This document shows positions 12,001 through 30,500 of a stretch of 45,201 bases of DNA, one piece after another. Position numbers and translations under genes: made by a program. The notes beneath the pieces are model-generated. The model was not told the origin of the DNA. It did no database searches and was given only the letters and a program-made list of their open reading frames with translations. Position 1 is the stretch's first letter. Each line of letters starts with the position of its first letter. This stretch comes from Candidatus Omnitrophota bacterium (GTDB lineage: Bacteria; Omnitrophota; Gorgyraeia; 2-01-FULL-45-10), in the NCBI GenBank assembly GCA_026387165.1, contig JAPLMG010000015.1, positions 1 through 45,201 on the forward strand. The letters are read 5' to 3'.

Positions 12001-15000
12001 GCGGCGGTGTTGCCCTGTATGCGGGAATAGCCGGGCTTATAATGACAGGCGCGTATGCATTATCAGGCGCGATGCAATTTGCCGGACAATCGAAATCCGT
12101 CGTGACCAGGGCGGGGGTAGGACGAAAATATCTTGGCGAAAAGGGCTTTGCCAATATAATCCTGGGGGTCATCGAGAACGCCTCTATGAATCTTATCATG
12201 CTGGCGCCGGTAATACTTACGATCGCGCAATTCAATATAAAATCCTTCTTTATCGCTTCGGTAGCGCCTTCGGCGCTGGCGCTCTCGGGTTATATTTTAG
12301 CTCCTTTGTTCCTCCTGATCGGCGTCTATCTGATCCTGGCTTATAAAGATATCGTGCCCATGGTAAGGTCGAAAAAGGTCATGGCCGCCCTCGGTATCGC
12401 GTCAGCCGGAAGCGTTGCGCTGGGCGCGTACCGGCAAAATATTCAGGCAGCTACCGCCTCTCAGCAGGCGCTGGAAGATTATTTCACAAGGCTGGAAGAG
12501 AAGCTCGGCCCAAGCCGGGGGGTCAGTCCTGAGGTGGTTGCAAGACGTGATAGGCTTGTTGCGCAGGCGTACCGCGACCTGACCGCAGAGGCCCAGAAGA
12601 GCGTCACCATTTCTACAGATGCCATCATAGGGAAGATCGCTTCGGAGAGATTCAATCAAGCCCTGCAGCCGTACCTGGATAGTTACAATGCCGCGAGCGC
12701 AGCCGCGAATACCGCTTTGGCACAGAAAGATAAGCCCGATTTCAAGAAAGCCCAAGAGGAATTCGGCAAGGCCGCCGCCGCGCTTGCCGGGATAAATAAT
12801 ATCGATCCCAATCTCATGAAGTTTACAGAAATTACGGAGCCCAAAGGCTTTGTCTTAGCTCTAAACAGGGCGGCAAGATATATCGCGGGCGTGGCCAGGG
12901 TATCTCCCGACCGGGTGCCTTTCGGAGTTATAAGAAAAAATATTACTATCGCAGAGCAGATCGCGAAGCTGAATAAGCAGAAAGACGATATCGCAAAAGA
13001 GGCGCGGCTCTTTCCTTATAGAGAGCAATATAAGGAGGGTGTCAATAATGTAACCGCCGCCTTTTCCGGGGAAGGCCTTCCTGATTTTGCGGCCATAGAT
13101 AGCGCGTTTACAAAAGCAGCCGGCGCTCTTATCGAAATAAATAAGATAGATCCGAAGATCGTCACAGAAGAGCAGATCGGGAATTTGAAAAAGAAGCAAG
13201 AGGCGTATTCCAAGCTCGCGAAGTTCGCGACGCCGGAAGGCGGCATGGCAGCTGTCGGGCCGGCTGCTGGGCCGGGACCGGGCGCAGGCGCGCCTCCGCC
13301 TCCTCCGGAAGATAAGGCAGCTACGCAAGCTGCAGCGATCCCGGGCGCGCCGGGCATGGCGGCGCAGGCAATTGCCGCCGCTTCGATGGGTCAATTGCCG
13401 TCAACCACGGACCAACCCGATATAAAATTTGCCGTAACGCCGGAGATGGCGGGCGTCATAGCGCAAAACGCGAGTTATTTTGCCTACGATATCGGCGTGG
13501 ATAGGGCCACAGGCCTTCCGTATAACCACATAGTTCTTTCCGGCAACTCGATCTCTTCAACAGGCGCATACTGTAATCCCACCGACATAGGGCTATATCT
13601 GGATATAATGGCCTCCGTAGCCAACGGCAAAATTAAGATGAAAAGCGTGACGCCCCAGGAAGCATTGGGCAGAATTAAGAAGGCGCTGGGCACTTTATTA
13701 AATATACAAAAACGCGCCGCCGACAACTGGAAAGGTCTATTCAGCTGGTATCAATTTAGGGGCGGAAACGCGGTCAGGGATGAGGCGAGCAAAGTATCAG
13801 CCGTTGATAACGCAAACCTGTGCTGGTCTCTTGCCGCGGTTATCGGAGCTCTTCAGGGTGACCCCGCAAACAAAGGTATTGTAAATGCCGCGAATGATAT
13901 TATAAATGCTCAAGCCTCCGGATGGGCGGATCTTTATGACAGCGATAAAGGGCTAATGCGCGCCGGTTACGATTTAACGGGAAGAGGCTATTTAACATAC
14001 TGGCTCGACAGAAGATATAACGAAAGCAGGACCGCGACGGCGTGGGCTATACTGCACAGTAACGGTAAAGTGCCCGTAAGCGCCTTTACGAATATGAAAT
14101 ATCCGTCCAACCCTGAACAATACGCTACAAGTGACGGCAAAAATATCACTGGGCGCATGTCATGGGACGGCGCTATATTCCAGGCGCTGATGCCGCTATT
14201 GTGGATCGACGAGAACCGGATATCTCCGGATAGCTACGCAAGAGCGCACAGGGATACGGTCGAAGTCCAGATAGATCATGCGATGAAAACGAAAAAACTG
14301 CCCGCGCTGCTCTCGACATCATACGGGACGGACGGGAATTACAGGGCTTATGGTGTACCTGCCCTTGCGGAGACGGTAGTCAGTTTCGGAAATAAAAATC
14401 AAGTATTTGATGACGTCGCATCACCGCATACGTTGGCGCTTGCGGCGCTTGTTGATTATGACAGAGCTAGTGGTCTCATAACCAATCTCGAAAAGAAGCA
14501 TCCCAAGATAAAGACGCCGTATGGTTGGAGGGATGGCATAAATGCGCGCGGAGAAACGAGCGATACCATATGCGCGATCGACCAGGGCATGCTGGTTTTG
14601 GCGCTCCTGGGCCCGACGAATTCCGGTTATGTATCGGCTTATCTTAATAATGTCGAAGGGCGGATGGATCAGCTTTATTGGATCTACGGCGCAAAAAGGC
14701 CGGTAGCTGAAACCAAACCGAAAACCGAAGTTAAGGCTGCAGCGGAAACCAGGCCATCTGCCGAAACAGAGCCCGCTGCCGCAGCGCGCGCGGCGCCTAA
14801 GACGATAGGTTTTACAACTCTGCCGAAAGATATTGCCCAGCGGCTCGGCGCGAATCTGCTCGACAATATGGATAGATTTTCGGGTACTATAACCCCGGAG
14901 AAAAAAGAAGGGGTTTTTCAGATGCCGGCCGCAGAACATGGATGGACAGGAACGACAGTAGGCAATAAAAACTTAACCGGTTTCAAATACGCATATATCG

Positions 15001-18000
15001 AAGTGCGTAATACAGGCGGGGAAGATAAAACGTTTAAACTGGAGCTTAAGGGTATATTTGACGGCAAGAAGGTTGTGAGGCTGCCTAATGATGATAAATG
15101 GCATCTAATCCCCATAGAATTGCCAGGCGACGCCGCCTCACCGTTGGGTTATTTTGCCATATCCGATATTTTAAGCGCGTTTGAATTGAGAGGGGTATAT
15201 TTTTCCAAGGAGACGATAGAAATAGCGGCTCCTGAGGTCCAGAGGGTTCCTAAGCCGCAAGCGAAGCCGGCGGCAGCATCTGCTACAACGGCAACTGCGT
15301 CGGATGCGGCTACACCGGCGCCGGCGGTGACGTCCGCGCCTGCGACACAGCCTGCGCCTAAACCTGCGGTCAAGAAGAAACCTGTAGAGCAGGGAGCTCG
15401 CCCCACTACGTGGGAAGCGGCGCCTGCGCCCGCGCCGGCAGCAACTTCCGAAAAAGTCAGAGAAGATATCAGATCGTTATTCGTTTCGGCCGGCGCGGCA
15501 CTTGACGCGGCGGACAAAGCGCTTGATGCAAGAGACGCTGCCGGGGCGTCGAAGTCAATATCTGCGGCCAGCGGGAAATTCGGAGAACTCGTTTCGCTCT
15601 GGCAGCTGAATGAGCCCGTGGAAGAGAAGGCGCTGAAGGACCTGCAGGATCGCGTGCTCGACACGGCCGCCAGGCGCTCGAAAGAAGCGGAGCGTGAAAG
15701 ATCTATAAGTGGATGGTTAGGGTCGGTCCCGCAGCAGCTGCAGTGGGCGGCCGAACTTCTGCCCCCGCCAGCTAAGCCTGAACCAAAGGTGGCCGAACCT
15801 GAGCCGGTAGAGCGCGGCCTTAACATGTTATGCATAGCCGGGTTCTCTTTACTTCCGAACAGGGATCTGGAAACGTCCGTATCCCCGATATCAAATGACC
15901 TCGGATCAAGAGGTTATAAGGTAAGCCTCATAAAGCCGGGCGACCATATATTCCCGGATGGATTCGGAGAGTCGGGCGGGCACTATGTGGGAGAAGAGGC
16001 GTACATGGAGTGGTATGAATCGCACGACCCCGTTGTGCTCATCGGCACGGGCGCCTCGTCCGACGACGTCATGGGCGCGGCTAAAAAATTCATAGAGCTC
16101 GGCGGCAGGGCCGCGGATATCTTTATCGTACTCGTGGACGGCAATGCGGATTATGTAAAGAGCCTGCCTGATGGCGTGAAAGTATTGAGTTTTCATTCCG
16201 CGGCGTCGGGTGAGTTCGGGCCGATCAAAGGGGCCGCGAAGAATATAAGGATAGAAGGCGTCTCGCACAGAGATATCATAAAGGATAACGCTGTCGTACG
16301 GGGAAAGATAGTTTACGAGCTGTACGCCGCGCTCGAGGAGCGTGAACCGAGGCCGGTAAGGAAGGCGCCCGCAGCGCCCGTAAAGATCGCGGAGAATATT
16401 TTAGGTCTGATAGCCGATGCTGACGTCGCGCTTAAAATGGCGCGTGTAGAGCTCGCAAAGAATGAAGCCGGCAAAAACAGAGCGCGCATATATATTAAAA
16501 AAGCGGAGGACGCATTAAATAATCTTAAAAAACTGAAGGCGGAAGAAAAATATATATCGGCCCTCGGCGCTAGGATCGCCGCGTTTAACCGGCCTGCCGC
16601 CATTGAGCAAGACGATAAGATGGCCAGAAGAGATCCGGTGGTCGCGCAGGTTGAAGTATCCGAGATCGCCGGTATCATAGGCAGCGCTTTCCGCAAATAC
16701 GCATACAGCGATACCGCGGCAGGAAGCAAAGAGGGCGCTTACTTAAGTATGGATTCCCTTGCCGGGGAACTCGCGCTTGATATGCGTTATTATCTCGATT
16801 TCCAGCGGGATAAAGATGGTAAAAGCATAACGGCGCAGGACGTAAGGGAGGCCGCGGGCATAGCGTTAAGCGAGTGGCTCGCGAGGAATCCTGAAGCCGG
16901 CAATGATTTGCCCGGAATAATAGCCGATCTTATCACGGAAGAGACCGGGGTGATATTAAGGACGCTTTACATAGATGTTCCCGGATCCGAGGCAGAGGCA
17001 GCGGCCGACAATATTGCCGCCAGGGCCGCCGGGATGACGGGCAAGATCTCCGCCGGGATCGTAGGCAATGTCGCCTCCGCATTGACCGCAAAGCGTCCTG
17101 CACAGCCACCCGTGATGGAGATAAGAAGGCCGCTTAAAGCGAGAAGCCCTAAAGGCCGCAACAACGAATATGACATCAAATATAACGACTGGAGGCTGAT
17201 GGCCTATACTTTCGGAGAGGGCGCCGGCGCGAGAGATGGCGCGAGGTACGGATTGTTCGGGGCCGGCCACATAAAATACGGCTCAGGCGACGAATGGTTC
17301 CAGCCGAGGGACATCCCGGAAGCTGTCATGACAAGGAGAGACGGATTCTGGAAAGGATGTAAGAGGCTTCTCTTTAAAGAAGATATACAGGCCCTTAAGG
17401 ATAAGGGCTGGGAATTCTATAGTCCCGAAGAGGAGCCGCACATATCATACGAGAATATGACCGCCGCCGGTATCTTCATGGCGTCGCTGGAAAACATAGA
17501 TAATTATACAAGAATGAACGAAATAGCGAAGCAGCTGGGCATAGTCCTTACGGCTGACGACAAATTCCACCTGGATCTCATCGCGCAGGCCTCATTACCG
17601 GGAGGCGTGAGCGGCGGAGTCCAGCTTTGGTTCTATCTTAAGAACCCGGCCAAAGAGGTGAATGAAGAGATATCGTCGCAGAAAGAGAACCTGCAGAAGT
17701 TTGTCCGCTGTGACTATGTGCAGAAGATGCTCAACAATATATATGGCCTGAGGACGGCCCACAGGGAGGCGTCGGCGAGACTTAAGAACATGGAGAATTT
17801 CAAGGCGGAATTTGAGGAGATAGCAAAGCTCGCCGAGGCTAATAAGACGATAGAGAGAGCGGGATTTAAGATAGAGTCAACGAGAAAGATGATAGACGAT
17901 GCCATACGGACGGAGACCGATAAGATAATAGACGCGCGTACGGCGCTGAACAAGATAATGCGGCGCGCTCCCGAAGCTCCGTTTACTCTCAGCGAAGAGG

Positions 18001-21000
18001 AGTTCGTCGAATGGGACAGCCCTGAGTCGAAGAAAAGAGCTGATGTGCTGGAAAAGCAGATAACAGATAACATGGGCATGGCCCAGGCATCCTTCGCTTC
18101 CGAAGTCGGGTTAGCGAAAGCACATAAGAATCTGGGCGATCTGGGTTATGCGCTTGCCAAGGCCCGGAAGGAGCTGAGTATACTTCTGGGCATAAGCATC
18201 ATGTACGGATCCGACTCCGGAGCGAGCTCCGGCTTTATGCTGGAGTTCCGCAGGGACAAAAAGACAGATCTCATGGTATCCCGCCTGGGGGCGTTCAATG
18301 CGATCGCCGCGTTAAAGAATACCGAAGAGATGGCCGTGGTAAGAAGCGCCGTGCTCGCTAAAAGGCTTGATGCCATAAGAGAAGAGCTCGACTTTCTTAA
18401 TAAGAAATTGGCGCCCGCGACGCTAAAGATAAAAGAGGCCGAAGCCGAGCGTTACAAGACAACCGGGGATAAAGAAGGCCAGCCCCAGGTGCAGGTTGCC
18501 GATGTCAACGCCGCATATGCGGCGTACTTCTCCATACTGGATACTATCGCCCAGGCCCAGGCGGAGATAGAGAATATTGAGCGGGAAACCTCGACTCTCA
18601 AAAACTCGCTTACAGTCAAGACCAAAGAGATGGAGGATAAATTCAAGACGAAGGACAGCCTCATAGAGGCGCTCGTCAAGGCCGGGCAGGCCGAGATGAG
18701 GAAGCTTGACGCGACTCAAGTAACGCACATATCTCAAGATCCGCTATCCGAGATCGACGCCGGTATAAAAAATTCAGCCCAGGTCCTGGCGCTGGTGAAT
18801 GAAGAGACCGCCGCCAAGAGGGCCATGCAGGCGGTGCTTGCCCAGATACCTCAGGCCAAAAAATTCAAGGCGCTACTTAAGGAGAGGGAAGAGCTTGAAG
18901 CGGCGTATTATGAGGAGTACGAGAAGAGCCCTAACGAAGATACCGTAAAGAGGTTTATGGCCAAGAGCAGGGAGCTCGAGAAGAAGATAGACGTCATAAT
19001 GAATAACCTGCTCGATTTCGTGAATAAGACTGTTGAAGGTAAACAGGCGACGCTCGTGGGACAGAACTGGCTGGAAAAATTATTCAATGTCCGCAAGACG
19101 GTGAAATGCGAAGCGGTAGACATAGAGGGGTCGTTACCATCGGGCGGATTGTCTCTCAAGCTAAAGCTATTGATAGGTAAAGAATATTACGGTGAAGTGC
19201 GCCTCTTGAACCTCGCATGGCAGAAGGCGCAGAACAGGACCGTTAGCGCCAGGAATACGGTAGCACACAATATCGTTACGGCGCTGAATCAGATGAGGCA
19301 TACCAGGCTTTACCTCGCGGGAGAGAATAGCAGGCTTAAGGAGTCCGAGGCCGCGGCCAGGAGAATAGTAGAGAGGATCGCGGAATGGGAAAGCCGTCCG
19401 GATTCCGGAGAGCGGACGGAAGAGCTTAAAAAGCTTAAAGAGAACATGGCGAAAGAAGAAGCCCGCGGCGCGGAAATATCGATCAATGTCACAAGGGCCA
19501 AGACGCGCTTTAGCGAGCTGGAGATATCTTACAAGACCCTATTGGGCGTAGATCAGAAGACAGTTATTGATGTAAGCGTAATTATTGACTCATCGGACGA
19601 TAAGTTCAGGGACGCGGTAATGTTTGCGCTCTTTGATAAGGAAAAAGGACGGTTCGACAAGCGCCAGCTCAACAAGGAGAGGCAGATCAATATCGACATA
19701 CTCAGGGCCATAGACTACATGGCCAATGAAGATATACCTATACCGATAGAAATATTCATAGGCATGACAGGGGCGGGCATATACGCGGAATTGTTCAACG
19801 GAGACAAGAGGAGGCAGGTGGTCATCGGCAGAAAAGAGTCCGCCGGCGCTCTGAAGAGAGGGCTCGAGGCGTATAAGGACGAAGGCGCCGGGCTTTATAA
19901 TTCCAAACTCAACGCTGTAGACGAAAAAGATATAGCACTGGAACTTGCCGGACTTTTCCGCGGGAAGATAGAAAAAGCCGTTCTCGATGTCGAAAATGGC
20001 CCACGGGAAGAATCGGCATATGATGCGGACATCGACAGTCTCTCCCGAAAAGCGGACTATTTTAGGACGGTGCAGGACGAAGAGAGCGCCTTCGCGAACC
20101 ACCTCAACGCGTCCATAGTGGCCTCCGAACTCGACGACCCGGAAATTAAGGGCAAAGACACGAGAACTACCATAAGAGTTCCCGGCCTCAACAACCTGAC
20201 GATGAAGGATAAGAGCGCCGCGATAGAGGTTATGACTGCAAAAGAAGTGCTCAGCGCGGAGAAGGCGGCGTTCTTTTACAGGCCGCTCAGCGTATACGGA
20301 TTCGCGGTTATAGGATACGGCGCGCAGGGGGCTTATGTCAGCGGCGGCGGCGGAGCGGCCTCCGGCATCCCTGATACCGGTTCCAGCGGCAAATTGGGGC
20401 CATACGGTCCTATAATAGGCCCAAGCGGAGTCCCAGGCGGAGGCTCAGGCGGAGGCCCTGGCGCAATTCCAGGCGGAGGCAGCGGCAGCGGATCCGGCGC
20501 CAGCGCATCCAAAGGAGGCGGCGGAGGAGGCAGCAGTATCGCATTTAATGTAGGGTTGAACTTCGAGTATGAAATAAAAAAGCTGCTCAGCCAGGATCTC
20601 CCAAAAGCCAAAGAAAAATTAAAACTTTCAAAATTCGCTGAAGCCAAGGCCAACGGCGATAAGACGGTCATAGCGAGATCGATGGCGGCCAACATCATGT
20701 CCGAAGTCAACATGCTGGATTTGGCCAAGAGGCAGAAGCAAAGAGCCAGTGATGATAAGCTGCGGGTCGCCGGCCTATCCGACTCGTCCTTAAAAGGGAT
20801 CAGAAAATTGGGCGGGATGGAAGACGTGTCGGCGGAAGCGGACGTTTTTGTAAGAATATCCGAAAAAAGATCAAATCAGGCGCGGCTCGGGTACCAGACC
20901 GCCGCCGGCGAAACGAACGCCGATGTCATCATGACCCAAACGCAGAAAGAGACAATGGCTTTAAGTCCCGAGATGAGGGATCTTGTCGCGCCGTTCGCTT

Positions 21001-21035
21001 CGCGCGATCCGAGGATAAGAATACTTGAAAAATAG
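3039..21035 (+). CDS. Giant multi-domain membrane protein, part 1 (5,998 aa): signal anchor, TraB/ChaN-like, TM clusters, SecA-like ATPase, glycoside hydrolase-like, TolC/OEP-like
   Basis: Uninterrupted 17,997-nt ORF with a good SD. Protein-like composition throughout and several recognisable motifs (see sub-features). Antisense shadow ORFs cover it. An alternative in-frame start at ATG 3150 (M38) would place a classical signal peptide directly at the N-terminus. Confidence 0.92.
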   Translation: MNAWQARRKAPQSGDVEEVLSRGSLSTREELGARSLIMDLQSPRNKKWIRSIALVLVVCFINQDLVWAQEGTPVWSKGQGHSTGSGPGGNFAVKTQAVTPQGGIAIPKDVAVTKEVYKSTNGDARTVINIQDAHASLAAQESIASILDSLVTNYDLKLVAIEGSKGYIDTSLLKTFPDENIRKNTANYFMKKGKLSAGEFFSITSDKEISLYGIEDKRLYLENVEQFRKIQEINESTKKDIANLTAALENLKEKIYSKDLLLLDKNSVLHRDGKITFSERWDLVSKLAATQGVTYEKYENLSKLVESLKLEKKIDFQKANKERDALIDILSKKMVKTDLEQLVLRSLSFKQGKVSQGEYYLYLQELARHYGVDPEPYKGLITYTEYITLYESIDLVEIFEEVRKFEDSIKEKILKDDYQRKLHGFSRFVSLVSTLYELKLTGADTGELISYIPSLRGREAAEAISKGGIASLPSVARNDKELSISAETLAAFIKSASLKYGVAIEGGYDLGAIFAEIEPALSFYRTAEERNAAMLANTINEMQKNGQSVAALVTGGYHTKGLTEILKQRETSYLVILPKFDSSKGDRPYVAILTNKKEPYEKLLQTGDYYLATTSFFATQDNFNNAADIRAFIKELVLVAMAQAVLEEKNPKSVAEIWLNAYEGRQKQLGLRDSEVLFTRKELEGLIGSVEILTIEKGKTAVASIPTVSLRGEIGKEALYLKVVRAADETGVDIGVPTSGELASLIAAKKTLENRRPVVKPDDLEDRVARLEQETEKLKKYIKTQGPQDEALIIARLKEAGLFQYLVGQFEGQPADKITGDSLIAKLRAKGVRVRDFEGSAEVYGEVNSLLERVKAASASQLAITELATGGLITAARQRAIELAIGVDGKADILQVPPAVPVAPAPAPAAEAEASEAQRALILACLTEPLNENYKRLIDIFTTRKQTRSISDKELVIIDEKLKTALAGQLSGILPGNPAVAENLIDDESFRIFKNALQAELNKIRSLVRGLVEMCKDLPDDEVPEVVQELKGVYEPVDPGEGVPIDVGRLVDKMLGDRQITFALALLRNIDRMARAGRREEAIESMKKFDSFFPSDSDAMKDPGVMAERGRIRTLLNIDEGIYIREKPGKGPGLKGTINLLWLGAGITFLYHMVKSATPALAETGQGVQAIMGSGIHEGARAGLAAISTGNLAVAIFVAVAAFLICMEDFGISKRKQPAPLFPAGKTMLTGQPLEWQTPKFLSLDNTLGIINFIGIMAVAECAIGAGIGLLGFWTAIGVSFAFELVIIKTIARYTSLIDLKKHPFLNMAIAILYNKIFSKVFIGAAALLLINMARPPTQGEEIRAMVYTGQSRPMWNSIYRIVMFIALNFFIYAFLVVLGRAIRKWKKEPLPESNVNEKDRSFYRRLNLFLGIGNISIPAIILMLFWQRYVRILPAAFRIAVLSLGTVVLLMMSLSALKSYFSNRKAWAMVELSERIITSRRDRPVDWLLRGLMRRSKIGAGISLEEADKANTNLRLIAIALDELARKLRLGGEWAVDAVIAKANSVWNRFDGMKALEKADDKDAIKLLVRNRAKLGSLIYKKTASNLDRINASIGGIFGAGILARAIYERLIRGETPLHEPGVIQAGIGNNLLVLFAVLAAVVTAIVIVVKKLKGTAKQIGTVKEENAATKNARRRIRGASTAIENAKRRGEILREAQAKLLVDSLYACLVPGMPLDVADDLKGAVREVERACGKTLTSAVPAEKPKEKPGRTVQSAILATGLGMKVLSVLNVLNLDPAAAALFGIIGLALAAVATMSFAFTNRANILLFFAPPVPARGPPGARRPEAARQPGRAAQPQPSAITPRQISTSKPTFIQEIPLESRAARPSDPQQAAFYNALKERGMTISKGQLAAIIENTEAIEEGRKMVFDHAATGGGKTVIGYGTAYLWVAGERGRRAFVATAKDYDSKDNAEEAQNVFLTDALKDKKIRVAYITGGEGKRGEGRVANIYDYDTGGWREVPESRAYEDAQVIYADETYHRFFLQSKEGVRFARAPEHLGRVLMIHDEADNTRVLNRTPCVISGDLKPEAAAEVKDMEFVHANILAELGMRGEPAIKRSTHYFKSDDDSSRTTLDWIFGYRKLLALVFFKYRAQMKHRPFSEWRRTVETALTAQNNYLPDTAPVPDNGRHFKFYKVDRVYGDVVSIENGDPKYGQELPGGLHDSLRIIARTADPSLSGVIEPRGSRQTISRLTVESSDALPCMRATVLMTATGREALGQLYPDLKYVAVESAFPDNRIVNAPVFTDTDPNKWKAMIGEIGRHLSGPQLIDVRHEDIGIVEQKLREAFGSRVEVVVYKGTLPEGQRTDIIANAGKPGRITLIDDTLTRGVTIKLLEEASRQEGLHLYLTHIKLFKILIDQLIGRVGRQGLPGTVHQFYSKEDLRKLGLLVSEKIRENLVEPLMRRLGRPIPGSGGVYEDTVPGGRRKFEDLEGLSGIEEEIFGRDRILDTHLAETMSSHRREISRDGRIYDAADKIFEEMAADPERTAKEALEMINSPRSLELIRRRAVLIKRSSVERSLAELFTSSIFYGLDDPQRQAFVRAITQLIERERIEEAAVKIRSRIREAVILLVGPRVDRARTGYITAAEEMKDDGATEIERSADQTKDASLTGAAKARFEGERKNVATMLKASALEMLGGEIEDKRAQQKEITVLPGKARVARVSVYGGLTSLYYYYIYQGIISPLLSSGGLGRSVEGLFSFLPAISGLGPAVLTVITFTAIILVLTLRSSYLKRIAQMNVADIRMKCVLTGQEPALKEPLLFGNYLLYKHFLNPVAFMTLPVALVLMLSATSPLMLGLVGMTVTQALVAAAFSGVSGLIASLLIMVVYGRQKVPGSEKEEPPLVWAEKSVKGYKINLASISRGAALVIAAKILYPALISGGMMSVLIAPVIVLGAVLASHLLLKRFFAVQKGGGIESKTFFGGRSSLLGYAIGAGLAVTVLSIALSASGGVALYAGIAGLIMTGAYALSGAMQFAGQSKSVVTRAGVGRKYLGEKGFANIILGVIENASMNLIMLAPVILTIAQFNIKSFFIASVAPSALALSGYILAPLFLLIGVYLILAYKDIVPMVRSKKVMAALGIASAGSVALGAYRQNIQAATASQQALEDYFTRLEEKLGPSRGVSPEVVARRDRLVAQAYRDLTAEAQKSVTISTDAIIGKIASERFNQALQPYLDSYNAASAAANTALAQKDKPDFKKAQEEFGKAAAALAGINNIDPNLMKFTEITEPKGFVLALNRAARYIAGVARVSPDRVPFGVIRKNITIAEQIAKLNKQKDDIAKEARLFPYREQYKEGVNNVTAAFSGEGLPDFAAIDSAFTKAAGALIEINKIDPKIVTEEQIGNLKKKQEAYSKLAKFATPEGGMAAVGPAAGPGPGAGAPPPPPEDKAATQAAAIPGAPGMAAQAIAAASMGQLPSTTDQPDIKFAVTPEMAGVIAQNASYFAYDIGVDRATGLPYNHIVLSGNSISSTGAYCNPTDIGLYLDIMASVANGKIKMKSVTPQEALGRIKKALGTLLNIQKRAADNWKGLFSWYQFRGGNAVRDEASKVSAVDNANLCWSLAAVIGALQGDPANKGIVNAANDIINAQASGWADLYDSDKGLMRAGYDLTGRGYLTYWLDRRYNESRTATAWAILHSNGKVPVSAFTNMKYPSNPEQYATSDGKNITGRMSWDGAIFQALMPLLWIDENRISPDSYARAHRDTVEVQIDHAMKTKKLPALLSTSYGTDGNYRAYGVPALAETVVSFGNKNQVFDDVASPHTLALAALVDYDRASGLITNLEKKHPKIKTPYGWRDGINARGETSDTICAIDQGMLVLALLGPTNSGYVSAYLNNVEGRMDQLYWIYGAKRPVAETKPKTEVKAAAETRPSAETEPAAAARAAPKTIGFTTLPKDIAQRLGANLLDNMDRFSGTITPEKKEGVFQMPAAEHGWTGTTVGNKNLTGFKYAYIEVRNTGGEDKTFKLELKGIFDGKKVVRLPNDDKWHLIPIELPGDAASPLGYFAISDILSAFELRGVYFSKETIEIAAPEVQRVPKPQAKPAAASATTATASDAATPAPAVTSAPATQPAPKPAVKKKPVEQGARPTTWEAAPAPAPAATSEKVREDIRSLFVSAGAALDAADKALDARDAAGASKSISAASGKFGELVSLWQLNEPVEEKALKDLQDRVLDTAARRSKEAERERSISGWLGSVPQQLQWAAELLPPPAKPEPKVAEPEPVERGLNMLCIAGFSLLPNRDLETSVSPISNDLGSRGYKVSLIKPGDHIFPDGFGESGGHYVGEEAYMEWYESHDPVVLIGTGASSDDVMGAAKKFIELGGRAADIFIVLVDGNADYVKSLPDGVKVLSFHSAASGEFGPIKGAAKNIRIEGVSHRDIIKDNAVVRGKIVYELYAALEEREPRPVRKAPAAPVKIAENILGLIADADVALKMARVELAKNEAGKNRARIYIKKAEDALNNLKKLKAEEKYISALGARIAAFNRPAAIEQDDKMARRDPVVAQVEVSEIAGIIGSAFRKYAYSDTAAGSKEGAYLSMDSLAGELALDMRYYLDFQRDKDGKSITAQDVREAAGIALSEWLARNPEAGNDLPGIIADLITEETGVILRTLYIDVPGSEAEAAADNIAARAAGMTGKISAGIVGNVASALTAKRPAQPPVMEIRRPLKARSPKGRNNEYDIKYNDWRLMAYTFGEGAGARDGARYGLFGAGHIKYGSGDEWFQPRDIPEAVMTRRDGFWKGCKRLLFKEDIQALKDKGWEFYSPEEEPHISYENMTAAGIFMASLENIDNYTRMNEIAKQLGIVLTADDKFHLDLIAQASLPGGVSGGVQLWFYLKNPAKEVNEEISSQKENLQKFVRCDYVQKMLNNIYGLRTAHREASARLKNMENFKAEFEEIAKLAEANKTIERAGFKIESTRKMIDDAIRTETDKIIDARTALNKIMRRAPEAPFTLSEEEFVEWDSPESKKRADVLEKQITDNMGMAQASFASEVGLAKAHKNLGDLGYALAKARKELSILLGISIMYGSDSGASSGFMLEFRRDKKTDLMVSRLGAFNAIAALKNTEEMAVVRSAVLAKRLDAIREELDFLNKKLAPATLKIKEAEAERYKTTGDKEGQPQVQVADVNAAYAAYFSILDTIAQAQAEIENIERETSTLKNSLTVKTKEMEDKFKTKDSLIEALVKAGQAEMRKLDATQVTHISQDPLSEIDAGIKNSAQVLALVNEETAAKRAMQAVLAQIPQAKKFKALLKEREELEAAYYEEYEKSPNEDTVKRFMAKSRELEKKIDVIMNNLLDFVNKTVEGKQATLVGQNWLEKLFNVRKTVKCEAVDIEGSLPSGGLSLKLKLLIGKEYYGEVRLLNLAWQKAQNRTVSARNTVAHNIVTALNQMRHTRLYLAGENSRLKESEAAARRIVERIAEWESRPDSGERTEELKKLKENMAKEEARGAEISINVTRAKTRFSELEISYKTLLGVDQKTVIDVSVIIDSSDDKFRDAVMFALFDKEKGRFDKRQLNKERQINIDILRAIDYMANEDIPIPIEIFIGMTGAGIYAELFNGDKRRQVVIGRKESAGALKRGLEAYKDEGAGLYNSKLNAVDEKDIALELAGLFRGKIEKAVLDVENGPREESAYDADIDSLSRKADYFRTVQDEESAFANHLNASIVASELDDPEIKGKDTRTTIRVPGLNNLTMKDKSAAIEVMTAKEVLSAEKAAFFYRPLSVYGFAVIGYGAQGAYVSGGGGAASGIPDTGSSGKLGPYGPIIGPSGVPGGGSGGGPGAIPGGGSGSGSGASASKGGGGGGSSIAFNVGLNFEYEIKKLLSQDLPKAKEKLKLSKFAEAKANGDKTVIARSMAANIMSEVNMLDLAKRQKQRASDDKLRVAGLSDSSLKGIRKLGGMEDVSAEADVFVRISEKRSNQARLGYQTAAGETNADVIMTQTQKETMALSPEMRDLVAPFASRDPRIRILEK
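3150..3243 (+). other. Signal peptide / signal-anchor segment
   Basis: MDLQSPRNKKWIRSIALVLVVCFINQDLVWA|QE has a basic n-region, a hydrophobic h-region and a VWA-Q cleavage-like site. Confidence 0.6.
3412..4790 (+). other. TraB/GumN/ChaN (Tiki-superfamily)-like domain
   Basis: N-terminal INIQDAHASLAAQESI...LVAIEG and C-terminal EERNAAMLANTINEMQKNGQSVAALVTGGYHTKGL resemble the paired (G)xxH / E / ER / GxxH motifs of this superfamily. This is from memory, with a long insert between the halves. Confidence 0.35.
4397..4475. repeat. 79-bp nested palindromic (REP/MITE-like) element carried in-frame inside the giant ORF
   Basis: Outer inverted repeat GTCATTGCGAG (4397-4407) / CTCGCAATGAC (4465-4475). 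Inner inverted repeat CGAAGCAATC (4421-4430) / GATTGCTTCG (4442-4451). Arm hairpin GGCCGC-GAA-GCGGCC (4407-4421). It is translated as SLRGREAAEAISKGGIASLPSVARND. Confidence 0.6.
6445..8480 (+). other. Transmembrane cluster 1 (multiple hydrophobic helices with one soluble helical insert)
   Basis: Example segments: LLWLGAGITFLYHMV, LAVAIFVAVAAFLICM, IINFIGIMAVAECAIGAGIGLLGFWTAIGVSFAFELVII, IVMFIALNFFIYAFLVVLG, ISIPAIILMLFW, LLVLFAVLAAVVTAIVIVV, LFGIIGLALAAVATMSFAF. Confidence 0.7.
8660..10330 (+). other. Divergent SecA-type DEAD motor ATPase module
   Basis: Walker A ATGGGKT (8781-8801). MIHDEADNTRVLNRTPCVISG (DEAD at 9180-9191) compares with SecA DExD..L.DEARTPLIISG. LMTATG compares with GMTGTA. 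IIANAGKPGRITLIDDTLTRGVTIKL compares with IIAQAG..GAVTIATNMAGRGTDIKL. IGRVGRQGLPGTVHQFYSKEDL (10242 onward) compares with [21 protein letters not shown]. An insert of about 185 aa sits at the PPXD position. Confidence 0.75.
11150..12430 (+). other. Transmembrane cluster 2
   Basis: Example segments: LGPAVLTVITFTAIILVLTL, VAFMTLPVALVLMLSA, ALVAAAFSGVSGLIASLLIMVVY, MSVLIAPVIVLGAVLASHLLL, GAGLAVTVLSIALSA, LIMLAPVILTIAQF, ILAPLFLLIGVYLILAY. Confidence 0.7.
13420..14650 (+). other. (alpha/alpha)6-barrel glycoside hydrolase-like domain (putative glucoamylase / DUF3131 / GH144 beta-1,2-glucanase-like)
   Basis: NPTDIGLYLDIMASVANG...GLFSWYQF...VSAVDNANLCWSLAAVIGAL ... PYGWRDGIN...ICAIDQGMLVLALLG. This follows the pattern I recall for the family: TSxTNIGLYL ... 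G.(L/F)YNWYD ... VSTVDSGNL ... YGF.D.(F/I)N ... IDQG. Confidence 0.55.
19140..19555 (+). other. TolC/OEP-type repeat 1
   Basis: GGLSLKLKLLIGKEYYGEVRLLNLAWQKAQNRTVSARNTVAHNIVTALNQMRHTRLYL...ISINVTRAKTRFSELEISYKTLLG follows the outer-membrane efflux protein repeat pattern: beta strands, then paired long helices ending in ...L..LLG. Confidence 0.45.
20340..20538 (+). repeat. Gly/Ser/Pro-rich low-complexity tract
   Basis: SGGGGAASGIPDTGSSGKLGPYGPIIGPSGVPGGGSGGGPGAIPGGGSGSGSGASASKGGGGGGSS, followed by a beta-strand-like IAFNVGLNFEYEI. Confidence 0.8.
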
Positions 21036-21510
21036 GTCGAGATAGGTAAGCTGAACGTGACGCAGGCTTGGATAGACAGGTTCATACCGAGCATCAAATT
21101 GAGAGCGGTAGTTTCGGCGATGCAGCGCCTCGTAGGAGTCGAGATCAGGATTCCGATAATTACAGGCGGCGAGCAACAGGCCAACCAGCGCATAACAGAG
21201 CTTGAGCTTAGTAATATCAGATCATCACTTTCCGATGAAAATCGAGAAGTCTTCGATGAATTATACGCGATGTTTACGGAGCTCGAAAGGACGCTTAAGG
21301 ACCTTGAAGGCAGCGAGATAGCGCTTGCCTGGGCGTACGAGAATTATGAAAATGCCCGGAAAGATCTTGAACGGGGGGCTATCGATGAGATAGCGTATGT
21401 AGCGGCGATCAAGGCCTTAAACGGAGCCGAAATAAGATACACTGCGACAAGAGATAGTTATATTAAGCTCGATACGCTGCTCCGCGCGAGGCTCAATAGT
21501 TACGGCCTGA
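20955..21510 (+). other. TolC/OEP-type repeat 2, interrupted by the in-frame TAG
   Basis: LSPEMRDLVAPFASRDPRIRILEK*VEIGKLNVTQAWIDRFIPSIKL...VGVEIRIPIITGGEQQANQRITELELSNIRSSL...DLERGAIDEIAYVAAIKALNGAEIRYTATRDSYIKLDTLLRARLN. This matches the OEP consensus shape: NPdl..a...v.aa.a.v..a....lPsl.l ... l.lPlfdgG...a.i..a ... y.aG.....dvl.a...l..a......a...y......L. Confidence 0.55.
21033..21035 (+). other. Single in-frame TAG separating two giant ORFs of identical frame
   Basis: 3039 and 21120 are both 0 mod 3. The 28 codons from 21036 to 21119 contain no stop, so the TAG is the only interruption in 42,162 nt of open frame. Confidence 0.95.
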
Positions 21511-24500
21511 CCAATAAAGAGATCGCCGAAATGGAGAGGGATGCCAGAGGCAAAGAGGGCGTCGAGGAGGCTGCGAGAGCCGGCGCGGCCAGGAAAGCGG
21601 AAGCGATAAAGGCTGTGGAGCCCGCGCGCGATGCCGAGCTGAGAAGGCTTGAAGAAAAAGAGCGCGAGGCGGTCGTGATCGCCCAGAAGAGGGAAGAGCG
21701 CGAACGCGCCCGGGGCCAGAATCCGCTTGAGAAGCAGAGACTTACAGAGTCAGAGAGAGCGGCGCAGGCGTTATTAAAAGGCGCTCTCGATGCCGACGCC
21801 GAGAAAGCCGAAAATACGATGAAATACAGGGTGCGTTCCGAGATCTTTAAGGACGCGATCATCACACCTAAATACGCGACAGGTGTGAAGTCCTATTATT
21901 CGATAGCGATGGAGAGCCTGCTGACTACCATCGGGATGCCTTTTGGTGTTACAGGGGACGGCTGGGAAAGGGCGGTAAAGATCGACGACTGGCTGGATGT
22001 GGTAAATTCTTACGTCGTTACCCACAACGCGCAGTTCAACATGAATAACAGGCTATCCTTGATGGAGCAGACATACAAAGGCCTTAGCCCTGCAGAGAAA
22101 GATCAGTTAGAAAGGATCTCGAGGAGGCCCAATCAGCCCATCAGATGGGACAGACACTGGGAAGGATATTTCACCAGCGCGCAGATAAATACGCTGAATA
22201 TCCTGTTCAAAGGAAACGAGAGAAAGATCGCCAGCCAATATCTTGATGACGGAAAGATCAATCCCGCGTGGATCGGCCTTTCCAAGATAGGCATCTTAAG
22301 TTACGCGGCCAACAGGCAGATAGCCGATTCTACAAAATCGGCCCTGGGCGTTGTAAAAGAGATCCTGGCTAATGAAGCGATATTTGATAGAGAGCAGAGG
22401 TTCAGGGATCCGAAGAGCGAGGAAGACAAAAACTGGCCGGACAAAGATAAGGCGCTCGACGGATATACCGAATGGCTGCGCAAAACAAGACTGTCCTTAG
22501 ACAATATAGAGTTTTTAAATATACCGGAAAGCGCGAAGCTCGCGGATGGCGGTCCGATCTATCAGGTCAGGCGTTTGATCAAGAATATCTTCGGCAATGA
22601 GCGCGCGATATTCGGCGATTACACCGGCCGCGGCTCGGTGGAGGTATGGAACCTGTACCGGCTATTGTCGCGCCTCGCAAAGCCCGGAACGGAAAGGGGC
22701 CAGTATAAGGGTCTCGAGAACATACTTAAGCTGCTGCATGGCCTGGTCGTGGAGGGCAGGGGCTCGCTCCTGGACTTCTATGGACAGTATGACGAAAAGC
22801 GGCTGAAGGCTCTGCCTGAAGCGTTGAATTTAAGAAAGCTCATCGACGAAAGAGAAGACTACCGCGCCGCTCTCGAAGCCGCAAGGCCGGGCGATGACTC
22901 CGCGGCTCTGAAAGAGAGATTAAATTCCAAAGAGGCGCAGATACAGCGGGAAATGGATATATTAAGAGAGGGTCGTCTATATGGAAACGCCCTTTCCGTG
23001 CTGAGGTTTGCTCTCGAGTCGCCCGAGAATAGTGACATATTGGCTAAACTCGGGACCGGCGATCTCGCGTCCGGAGATACCGATAAGATAATGGATTTTG
23101 TAAGCTATTACTACAAGACCATGGATACTGCCCTGCCGTATCTTGAGAGAGTGTATGATGATCTGCCAAACGGCACCATCGACAGGGACAATCCCGAACA
23201 TATAGGTATACTGAGCCACTTCTACTCGCTCAGAGCGGCCAATAAATGGACAGACGACGAGACGCGGTATCTCCTGCAAAGGTTAGTCTCCGCCAAGGAA
23301 GAGGCGAAGGAATTTCTCGCGATGCTGCGCAATACGATGGTGGATCAAATAACCTTCGACTCCAAAGACACCGGAACCGTCGGCTTCTTATTCGGCCACG
23401 TATTCGCCCGCATCCAGAACGGCTGGGACAAAACGGCCATCAGGGACAGGATCCCGATCATGGGGATGATAAAACCGTGTCTTGAAGCATATCACGGTTA
23501 TAAGATAGATGATAAGGGCACGCCTGAAGAGCAGGCTGATAAAATAGGCAATCTGCTATATTGGAATAAGTTCCTTAAGGAAAATTTGAAAGATGATTTT
23601 GAGCTTTTCAAAGATATTCTCAGTAACCGCAAGGCGGTATCGCAGGCTATTAAGGAGGCGGATCGTGAGCAGTTAGAAACTGCCTTAGCGCAGGCAGATA
23701 AGCGCACAGAGGCTGAAAAATTTGCCATAGCCGTAGCGATTCTAAAAGATCAGAAGCTTGAAGAATGTGTCAGGGCGGATATTGAGGAAAGAAGGACAGT
23801 TGCCGGCAGGGCGCTTTCGCCGGGCGAAGAAACCGCAGTACGCGCAGCTGCCGAAAAAGCGTTTAATGAGTTATACGGCCTCCATATGATGGGGCCGCGC
23901 TATGTGGAAGCGGCAAAGCTCGCCGACGCCGAAAAAGACCGCCGTGTAAAAAAGCTGAACAAGGAGTTCGGACAGATATACGCTCTCTATATGGCCGAAC
24001 GCCGGCTATTCACAGAAACCAAAAAGGCGGTGAGAAGTAAGGCGTTGGAGGCGCTGTATGTCATAGATCCCTCTACTCAAGAGAGGCGCGCTGAGATCGA
24101 TAAGGAGCTTATGGAGCTCGAGAAGAAGGATGAAGAAGAATTCCTCAGGTTATATAAGAGCGGATTTATCTCCTCGGTCGCGGACGCGTTGATAGTCGAC
24201 GCCGGTTTCGTCAGGCTGACCGGAAAAGCATCGATAGTCAAGAATATATCCGATGTGGGCAATGTTATAGCGCTAAGGAATTTATTGACCAGCCTGAAGG
24301 ATGAGGGTATTCTCGCGGCTGCCGAGAAGGGGATGGATTTTGAACTTGAAAGAAGGAGGTATCTAGATAAACGCCGCGGGGAGATAGAGGCGAGCCTAAA
24401 AAAAGCCGACGTTAGCTTAGATGAAAATACTAAAAAGTCGTACATGAAAACCAGCGAAGAAAGCTTCGCCCATATCTACGGGCAGGGCGTCATAAACTCA

Positions 24501-27500: not shown

Positions 27501-30500
27501 GGCGTCGTCGCCCGGCAGTTCACGAAAGAGAGGATAGATCTCGGCGAATTTGAAAATCATAGAAGCGTTATTATTGACGGGATAACAGACGCTCTTATTG
27601 GTAAGCGTATACATCCCGTGAATTTTGTCATCCTTGTTGATAGAACGCTCGCGCTGAGAGACGCCATAATCAAGGCGGCGGCGGATAAGGAAGTCGACAG
27701 CGAGGTAAGGCCTAAGCTGGAAATGACGAGGGGAGGCTTTGAGATGCTCGCGGTCTTAGATCAGCAGGCGCTGGACATAAACAAGATAATAGGCATAGCC
27801 GATATAGAGGCCCTTGGTATGGGCCGCGGGTCCGCAAAATATACCCTTACCGAAAACGCGGTTAAAGAGCCGGTGAACAGCCTGCGCAGGATGCTCATCA
27901 ATAAGCGCATAGAGACTAAGTATAAGGCGACGAAAGATTTCGTAAAAAACAACCTGCTCAAGGATCTTAAGCGGCCAGAAGATTTTAAGGCTAAGCTGGC
28001 GGCTGATGTAGTGGGTGAAGATCTGGTAGAGACGAAACGCGGCGCAGACGGCAAGGAATATTTTAATGTTAAAAATAACGAAGACGCAAAAAAATTCATA
28101 GATAAGAAGATAGGTGAACAGAGGGGTAAGGAGGACGGAGATCGGGGGAGTTTTTGGCGCGCTTCCTCATACGTAGCAGGCGCCTTCTCTGTCTTTGTAG
28201 CCATCTACGGCATCGGGCTGATAAGGAGAGCTTTACGTAAGCGTGACAAAACCGCCAAAGAGAAGATCGCGGCCGGTGAAGCGGGCGCTCTAGCGCCTCC
28301 GCCTGAGGGCGCGGGCATTGAAGGAGCTTCTCCGGGCGCCGGAGAAGCGTCTCTTTCCACGGCAGAAAGGCGGACGGACAAAGGGCCAGCTCCGAAAAAA
28401 GAGAAGCTGGCAGCCTTGGGAAGATACCTCGTATTTGCATTGAAACTATCGACCACATTCGTTGTGCTATACACCTTTAGCCATGAGTTTAGGATCACCA
28501 TGATATGGTGCGCCTCCAGCGGGATATTCATCGGCGCTCTCGCGATATCCATAATCTTACTATACTCCACGATAAAATTACTCAGCGGCAGATTCCCGTT
28601 ATTCAAGGGAGAGCTCAGGAAGTATGCCGGCCTCCATATAAAAATTGCCAATTTTATAAAATTGCCCTCTACAAAGATCTCGGAAAAGATAAAGGAGATG
28701 GAATCTTACTCCGATTCTTTCAGGGACTCCGCGGGCATATTCGCGCTGAGGCTCCTTAAGGTGCCGGTCGGTCTGGTGACGGGCCTGATCGGGACTGGTG
28801 TAAGGCTCGGTGTTCCGCTCTTTCCCGCGGGCTATTTTATATGGCAGTCGGGCGCGTTCACGCTCTTCGCCGCTAATAACGTAATGATCTTCCTGCTCGT
28901 ATTCATGCTTATTTCCACTGTCGTCAGCAAGGGATGGGACCTGCTGGTGAGCGCATCCAAGCTTGCGTTCATGTATTTAAAAAATTCGGTGTCCGAAGGC
29001 TCCTATACCGCGCCGCAGATGAAAGAGGCACGGCATGCGGCATTGACGGCGTCATTTAATCTGGCCGTAGCGCTGGCGGCCAATATAGGGACGTTAATAT
29101 ACATCTATTTCACGCAAAACTGGTTTGCCTCCATGCCTTGGCTTCTTGCCATAGCGGCGCTGGCATTCACCTACTGTAACTATTGCGTGGCTTATATACT
29201 GGTGTCGGCGTTAGTATACGGCCTAATGGCTGTAATAACGGCCTGCCGCCCCGGCAAAAAGCCGCTGTGGGATATCTCCTCCTATAAGCTGATAGAGAAG
29301 ATCAAGCGCGTTCCGAAGAAATATTTTACCACCGTCTATAATATGGGAGCCATGAAAGTGGACGATGACTTCAGGACAGTCATGGGCACCACTACAAGAT
29401 CTTTTGAGAATAATGTCCACATGACGGAAGTGTCGGGAGAGGGCGTCCCGTACCTGCGCAAAAACAGTTCCGGCAAAAAATTCGCATACGACACCACCGA
29501 CAATCTCTCGATGATGGTAAAGGTTACGTCCGGATATTTTGATAATACAAAGGACAGTTTCGTAAAGACTCTGCGGGATACGCTGAGGCTGAGGAGAGAA
29601 TATGGCAGGGGCAAGGCAGGGATCATCTTTACCAATACGGATGCCGCGAGGGCGGACCTGGCCGGTATGAAGCCACACTGCTACCGGGATGATTTCAAAT
29701 ATTTGCTCGAAGGCTGGAACCACCCGCATGTGTATGTCTCCATATCGGATATCGATGTCGATAACCTGGAGATGATCACGGGAGCCGTGGATACAAGCGG
29801 CAACTTCACGGGAAGGGTCATAGCCACGAAAGATGATGAGTATTTCATAGACAACGCCACAGGCGAAGCCGTTTTGAAAGACGGCAGGATATTAAAGCCG
29901 GGCGAATATATACGCGATGAAAAATTTAATATCATAACAGACTATTTTTTAAGGCCGATAGGCCCGATAGCGAGGAACGACCCGAAGTATAAGGAAAAAT
30001 ACAGCGATGAGAGCAAGTACTACAGGAAGAAGAAGATAGTCAACATAAACGGCGCCGACCTGGATGTCAGGGTGTCGACCGAGACCTATTACGTGGATGC
30101 CGATGATCCGTCCATAAGGTACAGGCTCATAAAGGGAGACCTTTATGATGACCGGACCGGCGTACCGGTCCTGACCAAGGACATGTATGAGAAGAGTCCG
30201 AGGCACGGCTATCTCCTGAATAAACGGACGAAGCAGAGGATCGACAGGGGCCTTGACGGGAAGAGCCTGCCTGAAAGGGTAGTAACGGTGACCGAGCAGA
30301 AGGTCTTCGCCAAGAACGCCGCCCAGAACAGGATCGATATTTATACGCTTACCAAAGACGGGAAATTGCTGGACCCATCGGGCAAGCTTTTTGCCGATAT
30401 AAGGAGCATATCTTCCATAAGAACGCTTTACGAAACTTTCAAGCTCGATAAAGACGGTTCTCTAAAGAAGACATCCGATCCGGATATGGAGATAACGGAC

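Follow-up and report, generated by a model that had tools for sequence, protein, structure and literature searches.

The present analysis concerns a stretch of 45,201 nucleotides (nt) from a Candidatus Omnitrophota bacterium (contig JAPLMG010000015.1 of assembly GCA_026387165.1, positions 1 to 45,201 of the forward strand), which is hereafter called the window, and more precisely a TolC-like module embedded in the giant reading frame that occupies most of it. Frame 3 is open from 2991 to 45201, the window end, over at least 14,054 codons, with a single interruption, a TAG codon at 21033-21035, whereas the other two forward frames contain 861 and 1,067 stops. A preliminary description of this DNA had proposed two repeats of the OEP (TolC) type, at 19140-19555 and 20955-21510, bracketing a Gly-rich tract and strand-like segments. 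The collinear alignment with relatives (the proteins P0001 to P0004 and the locus L002, presented below), the AlphaFold secondary structure and the beta-amphipathicity delineate a module of six units, R0 to R5. The stretch singled out in the preliminary description makes up the distal two-thirds of this module, which is conserved within a small group of giant membrane proteins. The frame and its module are composed of the following features.

3039 to 21035, plus strand: first part of the giant open reading frame (ORF), 5,998 codons terminated by the in-frame TAG.
17559 to 21512, plus strand: TolC-like module of six units, R0 to R5, about 1,320 amino acids (aa 4841-6158).
17565 to 17642, plus strand: beta-hairpin of R0 (FHLDLIAQASL...VQLWFYLK), two strands predicted at a low predicted local distance difference test (pLDDT) value and coinciding with amphipathicity peaks, with no OEP sequence signal.
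18177 to 18254, plus strand: beta-hairpin of R1 (SILLGISIMYG...GFMLEFRR), read from the AlphaFold model and amphipathicity, with no significant OEP match.
19131 to 19376, plus strand: hairpin of R2 and start of its 70-aa helix, the first repeat of the preliminary description, with a sub-threshold OEP match.
19740 to 19814, plus strand: beta-hairpin of R3 (IPIEIFIGMTGAGIYAELF), from the reading of the strands and amphipathicity, with no OEP match.
20286 to 20585, plus strand: beta-hairpin of R4, whose loop is a 67-aa Gly/Ser/Pro-rich tract (nt 20340-20540).
20985 to 21494, plus strand: R5, a bona fide OEP/TolC repeat and the second repeat of the preliminary description, defined by a PF02321 match that spans the TAG (aa 5983-6152).
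21033 to 21035, plus strand: the single in-frame TAG, in the first helix of R5, aligned with a Glu in P0001, P0002 and L002.
21036 to 45201, plus strand: the frame goes on for 8,055 codons without a stop and past the window end; up to aa 9277 it is collinear with L002, which is itself a single ORF.

The search with the PF02321 hidden Markov model (HMM), which the preliminary description had called for, places R5 above the Pfam threshold. The part of R5 located downstream of the TAG is matched by itself with 36.1 bits (E 7e-9), the gathering cutoff being 22 bits. When the sequence is read across the TAG, with an X at the stop, the match rises to 52.6 bits (E 6.3e-14), of which the residues upstream of the TAG contribute 16 bits, and it covers positions 5-186 of the 187 of the profile; the stop therefore sits inside the OEP domain. 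The R5 units of P0001, P0002 and L002 also exceed the Pfam threshold (28.4, 35.6 and 35.1 bits, respectively). A profile built from three R5 sequences matches residues 279-394 of Escherichia coli TolC (E 4.7e-6) and aligns VGVEIRIPIITGG with the TolC strand S5 (VGLSFSLPIYQGG), then with the helices H7 and H8; the same profile also finds, weakly, the MacA adaptor, at its helical hairpin (E 0.018). The invariant residues of the R5 alignment (P43, L47, G59, E61, I66, G69 and G70) are found in the hairpin, outside the coiled coil. On these sequence comparisons, R5 can firmly be considered as TolC-like.

The model of R4 and R5 obtained with AlphaFold contains two pairs of helices, of 73+33 and 68+38 aa, with pLDDT values of 60-83. 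Submitted to Foldseek, it retrieves outer-membrane factors of the TolC family as its top 43 PDB matches, the best one being TolC 2xmn_A (E 1.3e-5, probability 1.0, 344 aligned columns), and the top matches extend over about 330-360 columns, that is to say over more than one repeat and over whole TolC protomers. As modelled, R4 and R5 together resemble a complete TolC protomer. The structural comparison with TolC that had been recommended is thus favourable as regards the retrieved family, and it is not as regards the barrel, which does not form in the model, the hairpins being unstructured (pLDDT <50).

The six units of the module have the same layout: a short helix, an amphipathic beta-hairpin, a helix of 56-73 aa and a return helix of 32-50 aa; a single TolC/OEP structural repeat is built from these secondary-structure elements in the same way. 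The long helices of R0 to R5 measure 64, 63, 70, 56, 69-73 and 68 aa, respectively (AlphaFold, helix pLDDT about 60-83); the long helices of TolC count 67 residues. In a conservation-averaged scan of beta-amphipathicity, the strongest conserved peaks fall at all six hairpins. The Gly-rich tract of the preliminary description is real, being the loop of the R4 hairpin and flanked by two amphipathic beta-strands, and the two repeats that were said to bracket it turn out to be the third and the sixth of six units (R2 and R5). The R4 strands display a textbook alternation of hydrophobic and aromatic residues around a hypervariable loop, whose length and composition differ among relatives, as expected of an exposed loop. 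At the DNA level, a 12-nt tandem repeat (20417-20480; 5.3 copies, 71% matches) lies under part of this loop and fits a slippage-driven variation of its length.

The firmness of the assignment varies along the module. R4 of the window has no Pfam match, and R4 of L002 has OEP as its best Pfam match, in register and just under the cutoff (20.2 bits, E 5.5e-4); R4 is probably TolC-like. In the case of R2, OEP is also the best Pfam match and is also in register (aa 5365-5446), with 18.7 bits and an E-value of 0.0017, under the cutoff of 22; this match is suggestive only, because spurious coiled-coil matches reach E ~0.005 in the same Pfam scans, and the R2 sequence thereby points weakly to a TolC-like unit. 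The first repeat of the preliminary description stands at this level, the second being the clear PF02321 match described above. R0, R1 and R3 are TolC-like by pattern only. Searched against the PDB, the profiles of R0 to R4, that of R2 included, do not find TolC; the family R5 HMM performs no better on R0-R4 than on shuffled controls; and NCBIfam gives no match in these tests of repeat homology. The comparison of the repeats with one another by hhalign yields nothing, R4 versus R5 included, and this test is without power because R4 versus R5 fails too. The count of six TolC-type repeats is what we infer from the shared layout.

The module is carried by a frame that also encodes inner-membrane elements and an ATPase, as follows.

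3180 to 3236, plus strand: N-terminal signal anchor (aa 48-66), from hydropathy.
6612 to 8432, plus strand: transmembrane-helix cluster 1 (aa 1192-1798), in which about 10 segments are hydrophobic.
8670 to 10640, plus strand: divergent SecA-like DEAD ATPase, with Walker A GGGKT and DEAD motifs in the translation.
11277 to 12338, plus strand: transmembrane-helix cluster 2, about 9 segments (aa 2747-3100).
28167 to 29240 and 32271 to 33242, plus strand: transmembrane clusters downstream of the module (aa 8377-8734 and 9745-10068).

The signal anchor, the two transmembrane clusters and the ATPase that the preliminary description had placed upstream are thus found in the same frame, and the ATPase is SecA-like: its comparison with the PDB gives SecA chains (B. 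subtilis SecA, E 2.4e-5), and its Pfam match to P-loop_SecA reaches 21.6 bits, below threshold. The whole giant frame contains about 40 hydrophobic segments. Around the module, about 5,300 aa (aa 3101-8376) contain no transmembrane segment, the next clear one beginning at aa 8377, and in the relatives in which both flanks are present the module is always found in a long transmembrane-free stretch. In P0001, it comes after a single anchor whose flanking charges predict an N-in, C-out orientation. A location of the module in the periplasm or the outer membrane is suggested by these features. Pfam scans covering the giant frame in full and the three genes that precede it in the window detect no domain of the adaptor, RND, ABC or MFS type.

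Searched exhaustively with HMMER, 1.84 billion representative proteins give four relatives only, and the L002 locus, from a Candidatus Omnitrophota metagenome-assembled genome (MAG), is the sole find of an alignment-based pattern scan in which each species was represented by one genome; word-index searches at the protein level, with a 967-aa segment and with the alignment A1, return nothing and miss the known relatives too. All the named relatives are Candidatus Omnitrophota MAGs, among them P0002, P0003, P0004 and P0005, of which P0002 and P0005 are named 'TolC family protein, partial' by NCBI, P0004 'glucan biosynthesis protein' and P0003 'hypothetical protein'. All relatives align collinearly with the module along some 1,300 aa. 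The 22.8 kb of L002 are entirely one open frame, and the window protein is collinear with it from aa 1911 to aa 9277, a BLAST segment (aa 5836-6946, E 2e-102) spanning the position of the stop; the alignment of P0001 (7,976 aa) passes that position without a break. The giant ORFs of all three relatives that cover it, P0001, P0002 and L002, are uninterrupted there and have a Glu, whose codon in L002 is GAG. A single chain with both TolC-like and inner-membrane elements is therefore the normal state of the family, and the window copy would depart from the continuous gene of its relatives by one G-to-T change (GAG to TAG). The best-conserved part of the protein is the PF10091 'putative glucoamylase' region (13440-14723; Pfam match 14010-14603), which is 47.6% identical to P0001. 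In P0001, this domain (aa 6422-6846) comes after the TolC-like module and the transmembrane clusters, and in the window it comes before the module; the domain order has therefore been shuffled between family members.

What can be said of the TAG itself is as follows. It is a genuine stop codon in the source genome, where it ends the genes 1421-2203 and 2196-2816. Its reassignment, or its decoding as pyrrolysine, was rejected: one TAG is present among 14,054 in-frame codons versus 98-378 in the other two frames, and the two upstream genes ending in TAG also contradict it. A programmed read-through at 21033 was rejected on the absence of RNA structure 3' of the stop (z = 0.07), and an internal promoter or terminator was rejected likewise, no such pattern being detected at the TAG site. 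Exact-DNA and protein-pattern scans of the metagenome collection, and the first scan of the genome collection, give no second copy of the locus covering the TAG; this exact locus was found in just one further public record, the Logan contig of SRR20698647 (2,267 nt), which carries AbiEi and the giant gene's first 441 codons. Since the GAG-to-TAG change interrupts the sixth repeat, the window copy is either a base-call error, a very recent nonsense allele or a gene dependent on read-through. The idea that repeats and inner-membrane helices belong to the same polypeptide thus holds for the reading frame and for the uninterrupted relatives; in the window, the chain is broken inside the OEP repeat, so that a single polypeptide requires read-through, a base-call error or the ancestral allele. 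For annotation, the consequence is that a single TAG makes gene callers split one gene into an ORF of 5,998 aa and another of more than 8,055 aa, both of which are wrong.

One explanation of this interruption is that the window copy is a fresh pseudogene, in which the TAG is real and only the truncated product of 5,998 aa, devoid of the sixth repeat, is made. It would concern the state of this copy and not the nature of the module, and it is compatible with any other reading. The single TAG can be reached from GAG by one base change and no recoding structure follows it; however, the 24 kb of downstream frame contain no second lesion, so that the inactivation would be very recent at most, and a base-call or consensus error fits the data equally well. 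We regard a fresh pseudogene as possible and rather doubtful.

TolC-family channels are known as trimers, each subunit being a protein on its own with two repeats, and they dock onto pumps that are distinct from them. The window module resembles TolC, OprM and CusC (PF02321) by the Pfam match of R5 and its alignment with S5, H7 and H8, by the R4+R5 model, which retrieves only this family, and by the layout of its units (hairpin, helix of about 67 aa, return helix) and their helix lengths. It differs from them by its position, at about aa 4841-6158 inside a frame that exceeds 14,000 codons, whereas the members of the family are free-standing proteins of about 450-500 aa with a signal peptide; the module is neither a free-standing exported protein nor provided with its own signal peptide or lipobox. 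It also has six units instead of two, one hairpin loop grown to 67 Gly-rich residues, about 120 extra helical residues in R1, and no adaptor or transporter partner within the window. As in tripartite efflux pumps and in type I secretion systems, the envelope would be crossed by the combination of an ATPase, helices of the inner membrane and an element of the TolC type; unlike in these systems, the elements in the window are on one reading frame, the ATPase is SecA-like and not ABC, no adaptor-type domain is detected in the window, and the transport role is putative. By analogy only, the module recalls the type V autotransporters, in which one polypeptide combines its own outer-membrane barrel with large surface or periplasmic passenger regions. 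The latter possess a 12-16-strand, Omp85-dependent barrel and not a TolC-like alpha/beta duct, and the window module is located in the middle of the protein, with inner-membrane anchors flanking both sides.

The closest known setting is that of the giant membrane proteins of Omnitrophota, of which a 'divergent SecA DEAD' domain is a hallmark (West-Roberts et al. 2023, bioRxiv 10.1101/2023.11.21.568195); in the same work, this SecA-like domain was proposed to serve the giant protein's own export. The window frame resembles these proteins by its length of more than 10,000 codons, its dozens of transmembrane helices, its divergent SecA DEAD-type ATPase without SecA scaffold or wing, its carbohydrate-active domain PF10091 and HEAT repeats, and the Omnitrophota MAGs in which its relatives are found. 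It differs from them in that the 3 kb upstream in the window are devoid of the type II secretion/pilus locus described in both that paper and a 2026 preprint (10.64898/2026.06.07.730766). A TolC, OEP, efflux-type or outer-membrane channel module is not mentioned in the main texts of these two papers or in one supplementary file of the latter. The module is thus undescribed in the papers searched, though the automated annotation of NCBI already puts 'TolC family' on two fragments.

We propose that the module is a duct or anchor of the TolC type in the outer membrane and an integral part of a giant protein held in the inner membrane, and we give this model somewhat better than an even chance. 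The transmembrane-free stretch of about 5,300 aa would lie in the periplasm. The module would insert into the outer membrane and would tether there the giant protein anchored in the inner membrane. It may serve as an exit duct for the giant protein's own parts or for cargo. With this topology, the clusters at 28167-29240 and 32271-33242 would bring the chain back into the inner membrane downstream of the module. The function suggested by this arrangement, the export or anchoring of the surface-active parts of the giant protein, would extend the published idea of a SecA-like domain involved in its own export. As to the assembly, one chain might build a complete outer-membrane duct of 12 strands and 12 helices, a pseudo-trimer of six fused TolC-type repeats. 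Because six units equal three TolC protomers, this single-chain, pseudo-trimeric barrel would be the most economical assembly; we put it forward tentatively, at a good deal less than an even chance.

Several of our results weigh against the proposed duct. The Pfam matches of R2 and R4 are sub-threshold and barely above the spurious coiled-coil matches, and R0, R1 and R3 have no OEP signal in Pfam, in the PDB profile search or in the shuffle-controlled family HMM. The mean pLDDT of the R4+R5 model is 46.8, and its TM-scores to TolC are 0.35-0.43. An engineered six-repeat construct of 1,200 aa, also modelled with AlphaFold, has a mean pLDDT of 49.8 and is too poorly folded for barrel closure to be judged from it; outer-membrane factors lead its Foldseek matches, which are not significant (E 0.065 or higher). 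A sheet made of the R2-R5 hairpins, or a barrel, is absent from both models. As regards topology, an enrichment in Lys/Arg right after the last helix of cluster 2 would suggest that this side faces the cytoplasm, barring a further weak helix, and hydropathy counts are too coarse a measure to settle the window protein's topology. Finally, the gene is interrupted by the TAG in the window copy, and the RNA downstream of the TAG offers no read-through signal. A simple coiled coil with no OEP match, the outcome which the preliminary description had held out as speaking against its proposal, is nevertheless not what was found: the OEP match is real, the barrel itself being putative.

The main rival to the single-chain barrel is a classical trimer, in which only R4 and R5 would enter the barrel, three giant chains would assemble as TolC does, and R0-R3 would form periplasmic stalk or adaptor-like hairpins. 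The restriction of the OEP signal to R4, R5 and, weakly, R2 speaks for it, as does the weak resemblance of the R5 profile to the MacA hairpin. Moreover, a major review of the outer-membrane factor family describes it solely as trimers of two-repeat protomers, the form of all its solved members (PMC8277102). However, R0-R3 each possess a conserved amphipathic hairpin right before the long helix, as R4 and R5 do, and six units amount to exactly three protomers; and since the profile comparison fails for R4 versus R5 too, the lack of signal in R0-R3 carries little weight. We consider this trimer unlikely, yet to be taken seriously.

It is also conceivable that the module does not insert into any membrane and that it constitutes a long periplasmic or cytoplasmic coiled-coil scaffold, descended from or convergent on an OEP-like sequence, the OEP matches being due to its helical-hairpin composition. 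The AlphaFold models are confident in helices only and contain no sheet, coiled-coil families come up at E ~0.005 in the same scans, and the 2026 preprint on the long proteins of Omnitrophota reports no giant outer-membrane beta-barrels (10.64898/2026.06.07.730766). But the R5 match includes the strand region, the invariant residues of R5 are in the hairpin and not in the coiled coil, and the R4 strands alternate in textbook fashion around their hypervariable loop; we hold such a scaffold to be improbable. Least probable is a functional two-chain locus, in which the TAG would be a true gene boundary and a second product (e.g. from GTG 21057) would supply the last hairpin in trans: the TAG does end genes in this genome and the 8,055 codons that follow are still open, but the stop falls inside a domain to whose score the upstream residues contribute, the relatives covering the position are continuous, neither promoter nor terminator pattern is found, the reading of the sequence gives no strong ribosome-binding site before GTG 21057, and the second chain, devoid of a signal sequence and with its first transmembrane helix about 2,380 aa from its start, would have no access to the periplasm.

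The surroundings of the giant gene and its distal part call for a few observations. The genes upstream of it are the following.

268 to 1125, upstream of the giant gene: Bro-N domain gene (Pfam).
1421 to 2203 and 2196 to 2816, immediately before the giant gene: type IV toxin-antitoxin pair AbiEii/AbiEi, with an 8-nt overlap.

These genes are mobile or defence-type cargo. Within the open frame, the G+C content falls from about 0.51 to about 0.42 over approximately 37500-45201, and HEAT-repeat matches are strong from about nt 40080 (PF13646, 215 bits), shortly after this drop. Tandem DNA repeats of 189-192 nt, 80-93% identical, occupy 40628-41276 and suggest a recent repeat expansion or a differently sourced segment. 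Sub-threshold Pfam matches at 34716-34847 and 36441-37097 correspond to a poly(A) polymerase head domain (20.3 bits) and to an ARMT1-like damage-control phosphatase (21.8 bits), respectively.

In conclusion, our observations bear on the architecture of the TolC family and on the way in which the giant proteins of Omnitrophota might reach the cell surface. If the model is correct, the TolC family would gain a new architecture, in which six repeats are placed within a giant protein anchored in the inner membrane, and with it a rare instance of a single chain attached to both membranes. Should a single chain indeed build the whole duct, the giant protein would be a self-contained envelope-spanning structure, with a SecA-like motor and inner-membrane helices on both sides, anchoring or exporting its own surface-active parts. 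An outer-membrane duct built in beside a SecA-like domain would then offer a concrete and testable route by which segments of several thousand residues could be brought to the cell surface.

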